From Naegleria gruberi (lineage: Eukaryota), in the NCBI GenBank assembly GCA_000004985.1, contig GG738853.1: a stretch of 64,000 nt of DNA, one strand, 5' to 3'. The notes beneath the pieces are model-generated. The model was not told the DNA's origin. It was given only the letters and a program-made list of their open reading frames with translations, and ran no database searches. This document shows positions 53,804 through 60,460 of the stretch, one piece after another (the stretch's first letter is position 1; every line of letters starts with the position of its first letter). The translations under genes were made by a program, and so were the position numbers.

Positions 53804-53888
53804 AAACTGTTCAAAGTTTATTTAGCCAAAGTTATACTTTGTTCATTCAACGTTTTTCGAAAATTGTAAATATGATGAAAATGTGTAA

Positions 53889-53977
53889 GGCGGCTTAGCA
53901 CAGTGGCAGTGCATCAGTCTTGTAGGCAGCAATGCTTAGATAACTGAGGGTCGAGGGTTCAATTCCCTCAGTCGCCT
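53889..53977 (+). tRNA. tRNA-Thr(UGU) with 17-nt intron
   Basis: GGCGGCT-TA-GCAC-AGTGGCA-GTGC-A-TCAGT-cTTGTa, then intron ggcagcaatgcttagat, then a-ACTGA-GGGTC-GAGGG-TTCAATT-CCCTC-AGTCGCC-T. U33 and A37 flank the TGT anticodon. The isotype call depends on the intron position. Confidence 0.6.
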
Positions 53978-54047
53978 TTTGTATTGGTGATTGCCAAGAA
54001 AAACAAGCCTTAATTGTGAATAAGGGATATTTTCTTTTATCAATGTA

Positions 54048-54120
54048 TCCCCCTTAGCTCAGTCGGTAGAGCGTCAGACTGTTAATCTGCAGGTCGGTGG
54101 TTCGAGCCCACCAGGGGGAG
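54048..54120 (+). tRNA. tRNA-Asn(GUU)
   Basis: TCCCCCT-TA-GCTC-AGTCGGTA-GAGC-G-TCAGA-CTGTTAA-TCTGC-AGGTC-GGTGG-TTCGAGC-CCACC-AGGGGGA-G (73 nt). Confidence 0.8.
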
Positions 54121-54590
54121 TTGTTTTGTTTTTGTTTACTCTAAACTTTGAACTATATTTGATATTACGAATAAGCAGAATATTTCTGAAGGCCAATTGT
54201 TATTTTCAAACGAGATATCCCGTCTAGTTGAGCTGGAAAGCTCAAAAGAAGGGAATGTTAAACTAATAAGGATTGGACGTGATATTCCCGTTCCATGATT
54301 TTTTGCGAGTTAAAACCAGTTCCAAAATCAAGCGGTTGTACAAATCAGACAAGCTAACTGGATTTAAGCATACGAACCAACCTGAAAGAAATGTTTTCTA
54401 ATAGAACCTTCCATTGTAAGCTTTCCAGTATACTGAACATTAAAGATCTCAAAGTCTACTAAGTTGAATTACTATTGCAAATCACCATAATGATTGCTGA
54501 TGACATTGCTGCTACTACCACTCATTAAGTGTGTGATTAATTGTTGTTGATTTGTTGGAGAATCAGATAACACAATCAAAAAAACACAAC

Positions 54591-57500
54591 ATGTCTGGTA
54601 AACCAAGATATTCCACACTTGTGGAAATGCTCGAGCATGCAACACAAGAAAGAACATCCTCTCTCATTTACAGACAATTAGATTACTCCAATGATGTGGT
54701 GGGGGAGGAGAAGAAACTTTTCTCTGACTTATTGAAACCTTCAAGTATCAAGGAGATTAGTTATTGTGATTTCTTAAAGAAAGTGAAATCTCTCTCCACT
54801 CTCATTCAAACTCAAGCCAAAAGTGGTGATAGAGCTTTGCTAATCTTTGAACCAGGTATTAACTTTATTGCTGCTTTCTTTGCTACCTTGTTTGCTGGTG
54901 TTATTGCTGTACCTGTCTATCCTCCAAAGAACAAGGAAGAATTCAACAAGTTGAGTAAGATTCTGGCCGATTCTAAACCAAGTTTATTTCTGTTATCCAA
55001 GCTCATTCATCAAAACTTTGAGCAACATGGCATTAACAAGTTTTTTACCAAGATTAATTCTCAACAACATGTCGAGAATCAGGTAATACAAGATGTACTC
55101 AGTGGTTGTCTGGAAACTTATGAAGGTTTTAGTCTTTTGATTTCAGACGCGGTTGACTACAGTGATAAACAATTGTATACATATTGGAAACACCCAAACA
55201 TCGACACAGATTCGGTTGCTTTCCTCCAATATACCTCTGGATCAACCAGTGATCCAAAAGGTGTCATTCTCACTCATAGAAACCTTCTCAACAATCTTCA
55301 TGTTATGAACTATGCCCTACGATACTCTAATCAGAAACATGTTGTGCTCTGGCTTCCTCCTTACCATGACATGGGTTTAATTGCTGGTTTACTTGAAATT
55401 GTCTATTCGAATTGTAGTGCTACTGTATTATCTCCAATCTCCTTCCTGGAAAATCCATTACGTTGGATGTGGGCAATCAATGAATATAGAGCCACATTGC
55501 TGGGTGCTCCTAATTTTGGTTATGATCTCTGTGTAAAGCACTTTCTAGCTCATGAGAAGGAATACAGAGAAAGTTTTAAATTATTCGATTTTAGCAGTTT
55601 GGAAATTGTGGCATGTGGTGCAGAACCTATCAGAGCAGAAACTATGGAAAGTTTCAGTACACTCTTCTCTGAATTTGGATTGAAAAAACAAGCCATGTAT
55701 CCATGTTATGGATTGGCTGAGAGTACTCTCTATGTCACTGGTGTAAACTATATGAAAGGTTTCGACTTTACCACAATTGACAACAAGAACCAATACATTA
55801 TCAAGAATGGAACAGTCGAACAAACACAAACTCATCAAAAATTCGTTAATTGTGGTGTCAACTATGATGAAAATCAATCCATTAAAATTGTCGATCCAGA
55901 ATCTTCTACAGAAATGGAGAATGGAAAGGTTGGTGAAGTTTGGTTGTCAAGTCCAAGTGTCGCTCAAGGTTATTGGGAGAAACCAGAACTTTCTCAAGAG
56001 GTTTTCCATGCACGAGTGGTTGGAGATGATAGGGAGTATCTCAGAAGTGGAGATTTGGGTTTCATGTTGAATGGAAACTTGTACATTACTGGTCGTCGTA
56101 AGGATGTCATTATTTTGAATGGTGTGAATTATTATCCTCAAGATGTAGAATTGGCATGTTCTAAATGTCATGCACAGATTAGAACTGGGTGTGTGGTGGC
56201 TGTTAATATTGCTGATCGTGATGGACAGGATCGATTGGTGATAATTGCTGAAACTAAAGTTGTTTCGAATAGTGAGACACAAGTATTGGAGAGTATTGTA
56301 CAATCCATACGATCTGCAATTGCCGAATCGATGGGAATTCCAATGTATAATGCCCTATCGACCATCCTTCTCATGACTAAAGGAGGCATTCTCAAGACCA
56401 CAAGTGGTAAACTGAGACGTCAACCAACTAAACAAGCATTTCTCAATAACAAACTTCCTCCAAAACTAATCGTTCACAGATGGGATCAGGAGAAACTCTC
56501 AGATAGCGCTTCTCAACCAAGTACTCCAACAGAGATTGGATTGGCTAAAATTTGGAAAGAATTAACAGGAATTGATCCATCACTTTCGAATAACTTTTTC
56601 CTTTTGGGAGGAAGCTCTATGAGTTTGATTCAGCTAAAATCTAGAATCCAACATGTTTTCAATGTAATTATAAGTTTGACTGATTTGGTAATGTCGCCAA
56701 CATTGCAATTGATGGCTAAATTGGTCGATCAACACAGCAATCAATGTAATACTAGCTCTGTACAAATTTCAAAGAGAGAAAGGACAAGTGACACTTTAGA
56801 ATTATCAAACTCACAAACGAGATTCTGGTTCTTACATCACTTGATCGATAATCCTGCCATTCACAATGTTTTTGCAGGTGTTCGTTTGAAAGGTGACTTG
56901 GATAAACAAGCTTTAGAAAATTCCATTACCAAACTTGTAGAACGTCATGAAAGTTTACGTACAAGCTTTCAAGAAACAGAGATGTCACCAATGCAACACA
57001 TTCATTCTGAAATTTCTCTCAAATTAAATTCAATTAGTTTGAAACATCTCACTAGTGAAGAAGAAAAGAATTTGGAATTGAACAAGTTTCTCTTTGATGA
57101 GGTGAACGCACCATTCAACTTGAATGAAGCTCCTCTTCTCAGAGCTAACTTGATCGAAATGTCAGAGTGTGATCATGTTTTGGCCATGACTTTCCATCAT
57201 ATCATAATCGATGGATGGTCCATGAATTTACTTGTTGAAGAGCTAGTTCAATACTATCTGGCTTTTAAGAATCATCAATCGCCAATTCTTCCACAAGTTC
57301 TTCAATATGGTGATTACACACTGTGGAGCAATCAACAACAATCAATGAATGAAACTCAATTAAAATATTGGGAAGAAAAACTCTCCAATTTACCAGAATC
57401 TATCAAATTGCCAACAGAAGGCGAAAACTTATCCAAATCATTTGATGGATCTCATTTCTGGTTTGCAATCCCAGAAACTCTCGTTAACTCCTTAAGAAAG

Positions 57501-60020: not shown

Positions 60021-60145
60021 ATCCTAAAAATGTAAAATATAAGTTGTAATATCTTAAAATATTTATTATAACGTCTCGTGTATCGTAAAGGTAATGTAAA
60101 ATAGATATTTCATATTGGCCGTGAAAAGTTTAAAAAGGAAAACAA

Positions 60146-60218
60146 CTCCCCCTGGTGGGCTCGAACCACCGACCTGCAGATTAACAGTCTGACGCTCTAC
60201 CGACTGAGCTAAGGGGGA
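60146..60218 (-). tRNA. tRNA-Asn(GUU), second copy
   Basis: Identical to 54048..54120 when reverse-complemented. Confidence 0.8.
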
Positions 60219-60299
60219 TACATTAATAAAAGAAAATATTCCTTATTCACAATTAAGGCTTGTTTTTCTTGTTAAGATTTTGGCAATCACCAGTACAAA

Positions 60300-60388
60300 A
60301 GGCGACTGAGGGAATTGAACCCTCGACCCTCAGTTATCTCAGCATTTCTGCCTACAAGACTGATGCACTGCCACTGTGCTAAGCCGCC
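60300..60388 (-). tRNA. tRNA-Thr(UGU) with 17-nt intron, second copy
   Basis: Reverse complement equals the 53889..53977 copy except for 3 substitutions, all inside the intron (gcagaaatgctgagat vs gcagcaatgcttagat). Confidence 0.6.
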
Positions 60389-60460
60389 TTACACTTTATC
60401 ATCAAATTTAAAATTTTCGAAAAACATGTGCAAGGACAAAGAATAATTCATTTGCAGAGT

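Follow-up and report, generated by a model that had tools for sequence, protein, structure and literature searches.

Clusters of tRNA genes (tDNAs) in eukaryotic genomes have been attributed to local DNA duplication, and they are characterized by rapid turnover and poor synteny (PMC2888827). Locally duplicated clusters and pairs are documented both by a survey of 74 genomes (PMC2888827) and by the 'pairs or triplets' described for Dictyostelium (PMC8163159); among these tDNAs, pairs of unlike genes are often found within 1 kb of each other, and anti-parallel arrangements occur (PMC2888827; PMC8163159). N. gruberi is reported to possess 924 tDNAs (PMC2888827). The locus considered here, which lies in a 64-kb window (the whole stretch of N. 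gruberi nuclear DNA that was analyzed), probably shares with these clusters an origin by local DNA duplication. Unlike them, it presents a heterogeneous module whose two genes were copied together, the copies standing in inverted orientation on either side of precisely one large protein-coding gene. Literature searches found no description of this N. gruberi locus.

Other described systems resemble the locus in part. In bacterial tRNA-linked islands, a horizontally derived biosynthetic gene is found beside tRNA genes, as it is in N. gruberi. Such islands carry direct repeats of the 3' portion of the tRNA, an integrase and often an atypical composition, whereas the N. gruberi repeats are inverted, complete and of a eukaryotic, intron-containing type; the locus has no integrase, its composition is host-like, and the orthologous gene of the sister species lacks a tRNA flank. 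In flip-flop systems such as the yeast 2-micron plasmid and the plastid inverted repeat, inverted repeats flank a unique, invertible segment, as the N. gruberi arms do in principle. The repeats of these systems are long and almost identical, a dedicated recombinase or a very active recombination within the organelle accompanies them, and both isomers have been seen. In contrast, the N. gruberi arms are 8% diverged outside the exons, no recombinase accompanies them, and a single isomer is known. The imr repeats of fission-yeast centromeres are likewise inverted, bear tRNA genes with A/B boxes, and flank a unique center (PMC2040200). Their arms are kilobases long and split CENP-A chromatin from heterochromatin in a manner for which dependence on TFIIIC and Pol III has been demonstrated experimentally (PMC2040200); the N. 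gruberi arms measure 0.28 kb, enclose an ordinary gene, and have no heterochromatic repeats nearby.

The enclosed gene has its described counterparts in the FAAL-initiated bacterial lipopeptide-type NRPSs (FAAL-T-C-A-T-C-A-T), whose N-terminal domain order and core motifs it shares. The Naegleria enzymes stop after the first elongation module, without a TE, R or terminal C domain, and, unlike the bacterial FAAL-NRPSs, they are encoded by intronless eukaryotic nuclear genes of host-like composition. The presence of FAALs in two Naegleria species has been noted (PMC12820801).

The inverted repeat and its tRNA genes

The features of the locus are the following.

52463-53803, plus strand: left neighbor, MFS transporter gene; stop codon 48 bp before the left arm
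53852-54133, plus strand: left arm, 282 nt (self-comparison and global alignment)
53889-53977, plus strand: left tRNA-Thr(UGU), with a 17-nt intron at 53925-53941 (ARAGORN, Rfam)
54048-54120, plus strand: left tRNA-Asn(GUU) (ARAGORN, Rfam)
54134-54590, plus strand: unique 457-bp region upstream of the NRPS gene, presumed Pol II promoter and 5' UTR
54591-60020, plus strand: NRPS gene from ATG to stop; 1809 aa, intronless, 5.4 kb, FAAL-T-C-A-T
60133-60425, minus strand: right arm, 293 nt, same module as the left arm
60146-60218, minus strand: right tRNA-Asn(GUU), identical to the left copy (ARAGORN, Rfam)
60300-60388, minus strand: right tRNA-Thr(UGU), exons as in the left copy; intron at about 60336-60352, differing at 2 positions
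60461-62653, minus strand: right neighbor, G-domain protein (N. gruberi predicted protein of 730 aa); stop codon 35 bp beyond the right arm

A preliminary description of this DNA had proposed an inverted repeat of about 280 bp with approximately 93% identity between its arms, and self-comparison of the window recovered it with arms of 282 and 293 nt. The arms are reverse complements of each other and differ, in a global alignment, by 11 substitutions and one 11-nt indel, which corresponds to 96% identity over the aligned bases and to 92.5% when the indel is counted, the latter value agreeing with the earlier estimate. The self-comparison returned them as two matches (I1: 53852-53997 / 60280-60425, 146 nt, 95%; I2: 53995-54133 / 60133-60271, 139 nt, 97%), and the arm pair is the sole repeat of more than ~81% identity in the whole 64-kb window. 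Read from its outer end, the left arm consists of a 37-nt 5' flank, tRNA-Thr(UGU), a 69-nt spacer, tRNA-Asn(GUU) and a 13-nt T-rich trailer; the spacer of the right arm carries an 11-nt insertion (CAAAATCTTAA) relative to the left arm and comprises 80 nt. A spacer of 70 bp with a 12-bp indel had been described before; spacer and indel are indeed present, but their sizes required correction. Identical tracts of 73 nt and more occur within the arms. On the inner side, the homology ends abruptly 13 nt past tRNA-Asn; outside the arms, about 22 nt more (to ~53830 and 60448) align at ~73%, and the copied unit may thus have been slightly longer. The arms enclose 457 bp, the 1809-codon NRPS open reading frame and 112 bp, and nothing else, in keeping with the earlier statement that the segment holds the reading frame and about 460 bp of upstream sequence, to which the 112 bp are to be added. 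The only other open reading frames between the arms are antisense ones inside the NRPS gene.

An identity of 92% over 137 non-exon positions cannot arise by chance. An assembly artefact is ruled out, as the arms differ at 11 positions and by the indel, and their unique flanks differ as well. The arms match co-linearly as a single unit, spacer and intron sequence without function included; they therefore share descent as a whole and are not just tRNA genes that happen to be of like kind.

All four tRNA genes, two per arm, were called by both ARAGORN and Rfam, and their RF00005 bit scores (58.5 for the tRNA-Thr copies, 67.9 for the tRNA-Asn copies) lie above the gathering score of 29. As read from the sequence, tRNA-Thr possesses an A box (TAGCACAGTGG), a B box (GGTTCAATTCC) and a TTTT stretch immediately 3' of the gene, while tRNA-Asn possesses an A box (TAGCTCAGTCGG), a B box (GGTTCGAGCCC) and TTTT plus TTTTT on its 3' side; A and B boxes are intact in 4/4 genes, and an encoded CCA is absent from the tRNA genes of the arms. 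In both tRNA-Thr copies, the intron is a 17-nt insertion that immediately follows the base next to the anticodon, which is the canonical 37/38 site. By cloverleaf score, boxes, terminator and, in the tRNA-Thr copies, intron position, all four have the features of eukaryotic nuclear tRNA genes with a type-2 Pol III promoter. The substitutions between the arms affect none of the 145 exon nucleotides but 11 of the 137 non-exon nucleotides (P = 3.6e-4, assuming that substitutions fall uniformly along the arms), and the tRNA-Thr copies differ solely at 53930 and 53937, both of which are intronic. This distribution points to functional, selected tRNA genes and bears out two earlier proposals, that the tRNA-Thr copies differ only within their introns and that the mature tRNAs are under selection. 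The unconstrained, non-exon sequence of the arms has diverged by 8%, which suggests that the duplication is young, yet not brand new.

The NRPS gene, its relatives and its neighborhood

Pfam recognizes two AMP-binding domains (the first of which is FAAL/DIP2-like), two PP-binding domains and one Condensation domain in the NRPS, which is identical to an annotated N. gruberi protein. Its translation contains the core motifs in intact form (HHxxxDG as HHIIIDG, GGSS and GGNS), together with SGKLRR and NGKLDR motifs. No chain-release domain (TE, R or terminal C) was found in the NRPS, and the protein ends 6 residues past the second carrier domain. The GC content of the gene (0.371) and its GC3 value (0.324) are within the range of the neighboring host genes; there is hence no compositional anomaly relative to these genes in either measure. 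Pfam scans of ten further open reading frames detected no partner genes such as a PPTase or a thioesterase nearby, and the 457-bp upstream region contains no repeat, has no Rfam match and lacks similarity to the upstream region of N. lovaniensis.

The sole eukaryotic relative found is the orthologue from N. lovaniensis (54% identity), which is also a shortened FAAL-T-C-A-T protein and likewise ends just past the second carrier domain. All homologues from outside Naegleria are bacterial, show 30-35% identity and possess one more module (FAAL-T-C-A-T-C-A-T, with three A domains); the best of them is located in a bacterial operon context. These sequence relationships clearly point to a bacterial ancestry of the NRPS, and a transfer predating the split of N. 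gruberi and N. lovaniensis is what the sequence comparison shows. The 54%-identical N. lovaniensis orthologue has the same derived architecture, and the NRPS is older than the arms. Among viral contigs, neither relatives of the NRPS nor matches to the tRNA module (0 in a dedicated scan) were found, and an origin from a giant virus or an integrated element was rejected, since these contigs contain no NRPS relative and the right neighbor has an orthologue in N. lovaniensis.

For the MFS gene on the left flank, nothing but paralogues within N. gruberi and a single short homologue from a metagenome was found, and N. lovaniensis yielded no orthologue. The metagenomic homologue is followed, 30 bp past its stop codon, by a tRNA-Ile(AAT) gene on the opposite strand, a different 3' tRNA gene that fits a turnover of tDNAs in the spacers at gene 3' ends. 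The orthologues of the G-domain gene in N. lovaniensis and one related species are followed by Sdh5 and by no tRNA gene. In N. lovaniensis, the NRPS and G-domain orthologues reside on different scaffolds among unrelated neighbors, and neither a tRNA gene nor an inverted repeat is present within 10 kb of the NRPS locus. Non-coding DNA around the NRPS gene yielded no alignment between the two species, and the 1.2 kb adjoining the G-domain gene on the side away from the arm had no N. lovaniensis match. Microsynteny between these species is poor on every side examined here and also in published comparisons (PMC6125883), which obscures the ancestral arrangement. Because the loss is general rather than peculiar to the surroundings of the arms, synteny was set aside as a test of insertion; a whole-window tblastx comparison gave mostly short, linked HSPs and carries no further weight here. 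A related sequence, L003, is collinear with N. lovaniensis (74-89% nucleotide identity) and falls within its clade; it thus provides no outgroup by which the polarity of change could be set. Scans of metagenome contigs yielded 0 matches to the Thr-spacer-Asn module and, separately, 0 matches to the 5' half of tRNA-Thr.

A probable inverted duplication of a two-tRNA module

We consider it probable that the arms stem from a lineage-specific, DNA-level inverted duplication (or homogenization) of a two-tRNA module that took place long after the arrival of the NRPS and was unrelated to its acquisition. The arms would then be paralogous copies of one small RNA-polymerase-III module, tRNA-Thr(UGU) plus tRNA-Asn(GUU), in which each gene brings its own internal A/B boxes and T-run terminator, and which includes some 40-60 bp of upstream flank. 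These copies would have arisen in the N. gruberi lineage through an inverted duplication of DNA, or would last have been homogenized there by gene conversion, at a time when the bacterial-derived NRPS had long been resident in Naegleria; purifying selection would keep both as working tRNA genes. At least 37 nt of untranscribed 5' flank were copied and a TTTT stretch stands between the genes, which indicates a copy taken from DNA and not from a Pol III transcript. The 8% divergence of the arms, together with the N. lovaniensis locus that has no tRNA gene, indicates that the similarity of the arms is far younger than the acquisition of the NRPS.

The precise bracketing of the NRPS would follow from the compactness of the genome. 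Short intergenic spacers would be the only permissive landing sites, and the two spacers beside one 5.4-kb gene are neighboring spacers, so that modules placed in both would bracket the NRPS. The module may accordingly be seen as what a rapid turnover of tRNA genes would ordinarily produce in a genome rich in tDNAs, rather than as the end of a mobile element. The direction of the duplication and its mechanism, for which template switching and the repair of a double-strand break at a tDNA are examples, are inferred, as is its neutrality toward the NRPS. The arms could instead be two members of a dispersed Thr-Asn family that were not duplicated locally; gene conversion could have maintained the likeness of an inverted repeat that is in fact old, which would look the same as a young duplication; and the absence of tRNA genes from the N. 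lovaniensis locus could reflect a loss there.

Understood as a module duplication, the locus would offer a clean, small example of DNA-level tRNA-module copying in which flank, spacer and intron were included and only the exons were held constant afterwards. It would set apart two events that the preliminary description had connected, the old transfer of a shortened FAAL-NRPS from bacteria to Naegleria and a much younger tDNA duplication, and it illustrates how, where a genome is compact, a gene of horizontal origin can come to be conspicuously bracketed by coincidence.

Other readings of the bracket

It is known that tDNAs can block replication forks and form fragile sites, and the arms might be the junction scars of an intragenomic relocation, either of the NRPS segment into a pre-existing tail-to-tail tRNA quartet or through a rearrangement brought about by ectopic recombination or breakage at tDNAs. 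The wholly different neighbors of the NRPS in N. gruberi and N. lovaniensis would fit such an event, as would the tRNA arm that in N. gruberi takes the position held by Sdh5 next to the G-domain gene of N. lovaniensis and one related species, and the abrupt inner end of the arm homology 13 nt past tRNA-Asn; tDNA clusters have, moreover, been linked to chromosomal instability and rearrangement (PMC2888827). However, synteny is poor everywhere it was sampled, so a breakpoint beside an arm is nothing special; the change cannot be polarized with L003, a member of the N. lovaniensis clade (74-89% nucleotide identity); and a tail-to-tail tRNA quartet was seen in no related locus. A relocation is thus conceivable but unlikely.

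The inward-facing tDNA modules might alternatively serve as a paired Pol III/TFIIIC insulator that delimits a domain holding the NRPS alone and shields it, or its neighbors, from read-through or spreading chromatin. All four genes have retained their A boxes and their TFIIIC-binding B boxes, and the arms fill both tight spacers, 48 and 35 bp from the stop codons of the neighbors. tDNAs are proven barriers in the centromeric inverted repeats of fission yeast (PMC2040200) and are reported at transcription-unit boundaries in trypanosomes (PMC2888827), which, like Naegleria, are classed in Discoba. Yet the N. lovaniensis orthologue is intact without a tRNA flank, so the NRPS needs no such boundary; there is no evidence for heterochromatin or repeats nearby; and the fact that the arms resemble each other even where the sequence has no function speaks for recent common descent, not for convergent recruitment. 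We regard this function as quite unlikely, and the broader proposal, in which the inward-facing tRNA-Thr/tRNA-Asn modules act as a paired TFIIIC/Pol III boundary, or else as a recombination cassette, and so isolate or mobilize a bacterial-derived NRPS gene of lipopeptide type in a very compact protist genome, as very unlikely. Were a boundary or recombination function to exist, tDNA modules would be agents of gene-domain insulation or relocation in Naegleria, tDNA insulator biology, studied in yeasts and animals, would extend to the distantly related Heterolobosea, and the locus would constitute a natural one-gene test locus.

Homologous recombination between the arms would invert the 6-kb NRPS segment, and with 282-293 nt at 96% identity they are in principle long enough for it. 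The segment, however, includes its own 457-bp upstream region, so that expression would not be switched by turning it around; neither the segment nor its neighbors, the MFS transporter and G-domain genes, encode a recombinase; a single orientation is present in the data (one assembly); and the 8% non-exon divergence suggests that conversion or recombination between the arms is infrequent. A flip-flop cassette is therefore highly unlikely.

The preliminary description had also raised the possibility that the arms mark the event by which the NRPS was installed, tRNA genes serving as integration landmark for bacterial DNA, and had suggested a comparison with orthologous loci. The classical use of tRNA genes as bacterial integration sites and the apparent bacterial ancestry of the NRPS, whose non-Naegleria homologues are all bacterial, with the best one in an operon context, are compatible with this view. 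The comparison turned out against it: the NRPS is shared with N. lovaniensis (54%), the transfer is older than the split of the two species, and tRNA genes and inverted repeats are both absent within 10 kb of the locus there. The arms, moreover, are merely 8% diverged, while the non-coding DNA around the NRPS gene is unalignable between the species. The geometry is also wrong for tRNA-targeted integration, as the arms are complete eukaryotic-type genes (with intron and upstream flank, and without encoded CCA) in inverted orientation and not direct, partial repeats. No integrase, recombinase or transposase is encoded between the arms, where the NRPS is the only open reading frame apart from the antisense ones inside it; the outer flanks contain no direct repeat, and hence no target-site duplication, at either candidate boundary; direct repeats of a partial tRNA 3' end are absent from the borders, which instead hold inverted repeats with two complete genes and 5' flank; composition is not anomalous; and no viral link was found. 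The transfer-footprint reading is thus largely refuted already and exceedingly improbable.

A tRNA-linked genomic island does not describe the locus (no direct repeats, no integrase, and an N. lovaniensis NRPS without a tRNA gene within 10 kb), and we likewise reject a TIR-bounded or composite transposon (no target-site duplication, and untranscribed flank was copied) as well as a SINE-like, tRNA-derived retroposon (the copy comprises two genes with a terminator each and at least 37 nt of 5' flank, and it has neither an A-tail nor a target-site duplication).

A second, older inverted duplication is present elsewhere in the window; it involves arrestin-domain genes at 36109-37131 and 47465-48502 (71-81% nucleotide identity), from which it follows that local inverted duplication does occur in this region.

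Geometry of the inverted repeat and constraint on its tRNA genes

Self-comparison of the 52-62 kb segment recovered two collinear inverted blocks, offset from each other by one indel. The preliminary description of a non-ribosomal peptide synthetase (NRPS) gene bracketed by an inverted repeat is right save for small details. Within the repeat, ARAGORN and Rfam were concordant on four tRNA genes.

Inverted blocks (self-comparison) and tRNA genes (ARAGORN and Rfam) of the two arms
53852-53997 / 60280-60425: inverted block 1, 146 nt, 95% identity
53995-54133 / 60133-60271: inverted block 2, 139 nt, 97% identity
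53889-53977, + strand: left tRNA-Thr(UGU)
54048-54120, + strand: left tRNA-Asn(GUU)
60146-60218, - strand: right tRNA-Asn(GUU)
60300-60388, - strand: right tRNA-Thr(UGU)

In a global alignment, 11 substitutions separate the arms (282 versus 293 nt), and one indel of 11 nt, CAAAATCTTAA, lies in the inter-tRNA spacer. The repeat and its gene pairs thus stand as first described, while the reported 12-bp indel measures 11 nt and the reported 70-bp spacer is 69 nt in one arm and 80 nt in the other. Apart from the arm pair, no repeat above about 81% identity turned up when the entire window was scanned. Enclosed by the arms are 457 bp, an unbroken ORF of 1809 codons (54591-60020) and a further 112 bp, and both tRNA pairs are oriented inward, towards the NRPS gene that they flank. 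On the inner side the homology ends abruptly 13 nt past tRNA-Asn. On the outer side, 48 and 35 bp separate the arms from the stop codons of the neighboring genes, an MFS transporter gene on the left and a G-domain gene on the right; about 22 extra nt can be aligned there at about 73%, so that the copied unit possibly extended further, to approximately 26 and 12 bp from these stop codons.

Both tRNA-Thr genes carry a 17-nt insertion immediately 3' of the anticodon, the canonical intron position, and A and B boxes, together with T runs behind each gene, are present in both copies of the module (the tRNA pair with its flank), which look like working genes. A TTTT stretch directly 3' of tRNA-Thr makes it likely that tRNA-Thr and tRNA-Asn are separate transcription units, contingent on the number of T residues that the Naegleria enzyme needs. 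All 11 substitutions between the arms fall outside the exons (8.0% of 137 non-exon positions, 0 of 145 exon nt), a distribution with a probability of 3.6e-4 under a uniform fall; the proposal that the mature tRNAs are under selection is thereby borne out. Since the unit copied between the arms comprises both tRNA genes and at least 37 nt of untranscribed upstream sequence, it was copied as DNA, without an RNA intermediate.

The enclosed NRPS gene and its N. lovaniensis counterpart

The enclosed ORF is 100% identical to an annotated N. gruberi 'non-ribosomal peptide synthetase' and encodes, in this order, a FAAL-like adenylation, a carrier, a condensation, an adenylation and a carrier domain, with unbroken condensation (HHIIIDG) and carrier serine (GGSS, GGNS) motifs. 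Its GC (0.371) and GC3 (0.324) values lie inside the range of its neighbors. Among the best 120 matches from a search of 5.8 billion proteins, the sole eukaryotic relative is an 1837-aa protein of N. lovaniensis, 54% identical from end to end; an N. fowleri orthologue is not among these matches, and all the remaining ones are bacterial (30-35% identity, 2580-3155 aa), the best of them being encoded in an operon context of bacterial type.

NRPS genes of Naegleria
54591-60020: N. gruberi, in the window
10001-15514: N. lovaniensis, in its NRPS locus L001

Both Naegleria proteins possess two adenylation, one condensation and two carrier domains and end just past the second carrier, whereas in the two bacterial homologues scanned these numbers are three, two and three, and hence include an extra C-A-T module. 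This common shortened architecture and the mutual similarity of the Naegleria proteins point to one transfer from bacteria to Naegleria, which would predate the divergence of N. gruberi and N. lovaniensis. Horizontal transfer has likewise been suggested for FAAL enzymes in two Naegleria species (PMC12820801). Searches of viral contigs with the NRPS and with the tRNA module yielded no relatives supporting a viral origin, and no description of the NRPS/tRNA locus was found in the literature. Neither Naegleria NRPS contains a thioesterase, reductase or terminal condensation domain; their predicted product is N-acyl-aminoacyl.

A check of the orthologous locus in N. lovaniensis found the NRPS gene present but zero tRNA genes and zero inverted repeats within 10 kb on either side. 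There the NRPS gene is flanked by a kinase gene and a ZUO1-like DnaJ gene, and the 64-kb window contains neither. Non-coding DNA surrounding the NRPS gene retains no alignment between the two species; set against the 8.0% non-exon divergence of the arms, the present arm similarity arose, by this comparison, long after the NRPS had reached Naegleria, and the arms are thus not an untouched footprint of transfer. Their similarity dates from the duplication or else from the latest gene-conversion event.

The geometry, too, speaks against site-specific integration: the repeats are inverted and complete, of eukaryotic type (intron, no encoded CCA), and include upstream flank. The failure to find between the arms any ORF beyond the NRPS, or a target-site duplication, also counts against it.

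Origin of the bracket

The bracket probably stems from a lineage-specific inverted duplication, at the DNA level, of the two-tRNA module, or consists of two members of a family of such modules. Module copies would have been placed in both intergenic spacers adjoining one long gene; in a compact genome a new tDNA would survive in spacers only, and adjacent spacers would inevitably 'precisely bracket' a gene. N. gruberi is reported to have 924 tDNAs and kinetoplastids fewer than 100, in a survey that traces tDNA clusters back to the local duplication of DNA and finds them to turn over quickly and to be poorly syntenic (PMC2888827). The arms may also be family members made alike by conversion, or an ancient repeat upheld by it. 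The module had no match in the metagenome or viral collections scanned.

Genes flanking the bracket and their relatives
52463-53803, + strand: MFS transporter gene, left of the bracket
60461-62653, - strand: G-domain gene, right of the bracket
2022-2094 of metagenome contig L005 (ENA, ERZ929261): tRNA-Ile(AAU) (AAT), on the strand opposite to an MFS homologue and 30 bp past its stop codon
10001-13784 of N. lovaniensis locus L002: G-domain gene and Sdh5
917-5077 of L003, a relative's contig (Logan run SRR29240419): G-domain gene and Sdh5

The MFS transporter bears a distant resemblance to FLVCR/SLC49. Two paralogues of it occur in N. gruberi (70% and 46% identity), but an orthologue was not detected in N. 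lovaniensis; the gene has the look of an N. gruberi-specific expansion rather than of a partner co-transferred with the NRPS. A differing tRNA in the equivalent spacer beside its metagenomic homologue (58% aa identity) fits tRNA-gene turnover in short spacers at gene 3' ends.

That the arms are the scar of a relocation is, in our view, unlikely. The G-domain gene adjoins Sdh5 in N. lovaniensis and in the relative, and in N. gruberi it is followed instead by the tRNA arm and the NRPS gene; the relative's contig, however, aligns collinearly with N. lovaniensis (74-89% nucleotide identity) and hence belongs to the same clade, and synteny is lost on all other sides tested too, as expected from published comparisons, so that a breakpoint at the arm is not distinctive. 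We regard as improbable, though plausible by analogy, a putative paired TFIIIC/Pol III boundary, which would resemble the tDNA barriers carried by fission-yeast centromeric inverted repeats (PMC2040200); the N. lovaniensis NRPS gene, however, persists without tRNA flanks. Recombinational inversion of the NRPS segment is physically possible but very doubtful, as no recombinase lies nearby and no switch in expression is expected of a segment that brings its own upstream region. Any boundary or recombination role of the tDNA pair is quite improbable. The suggestion that the arms are the footprint of the event that installed the NRPS hardly deserves credence, given a gene older than the arm similarity and shared with N. 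lovaniensis, a locus devoid of tRNA genes in that species, and a geometry unlike integration.

The feature is real and neatly arranged; on the best reading, tRNA genes were duplicated in the ordinary way next to an old gene of horizontal origin, a fresh example of a familiar type of event.

Other Pol III genes and duplications in the window

Six tRNA genes and one 5S rRNA gene give the window a total of seven Pol III genes, a density well over what 924 tDNAs would imply as the average for the genome.

Further features of the window
1037-1110: tRNA-Thr(AGU)
12316-12399: intron-bearing tRNA-Tyr
29172-29290, - strand: 5S rRNA gene (98 bits), solitary amid protein-coding genes
36109-37131 (+) and 47465-48502 (-): inverted pair of arrestin-domain genes, 340 and 345 aa
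38537-39022 and 39068-40030, both + strand: adjacent repetitive paralogous ORFs, 161 and 320 aa

The arrestin-domain genes, about 11 kb apart and 71-81% identical at the nucleotide level, represent an older inverted duplication; gene-sized inverted local duplication does, therefore, occur in this region. The two repetitive ORFs match no Pfam family; they are internally repetitive and align with each other in several registers at 33-47% identity.
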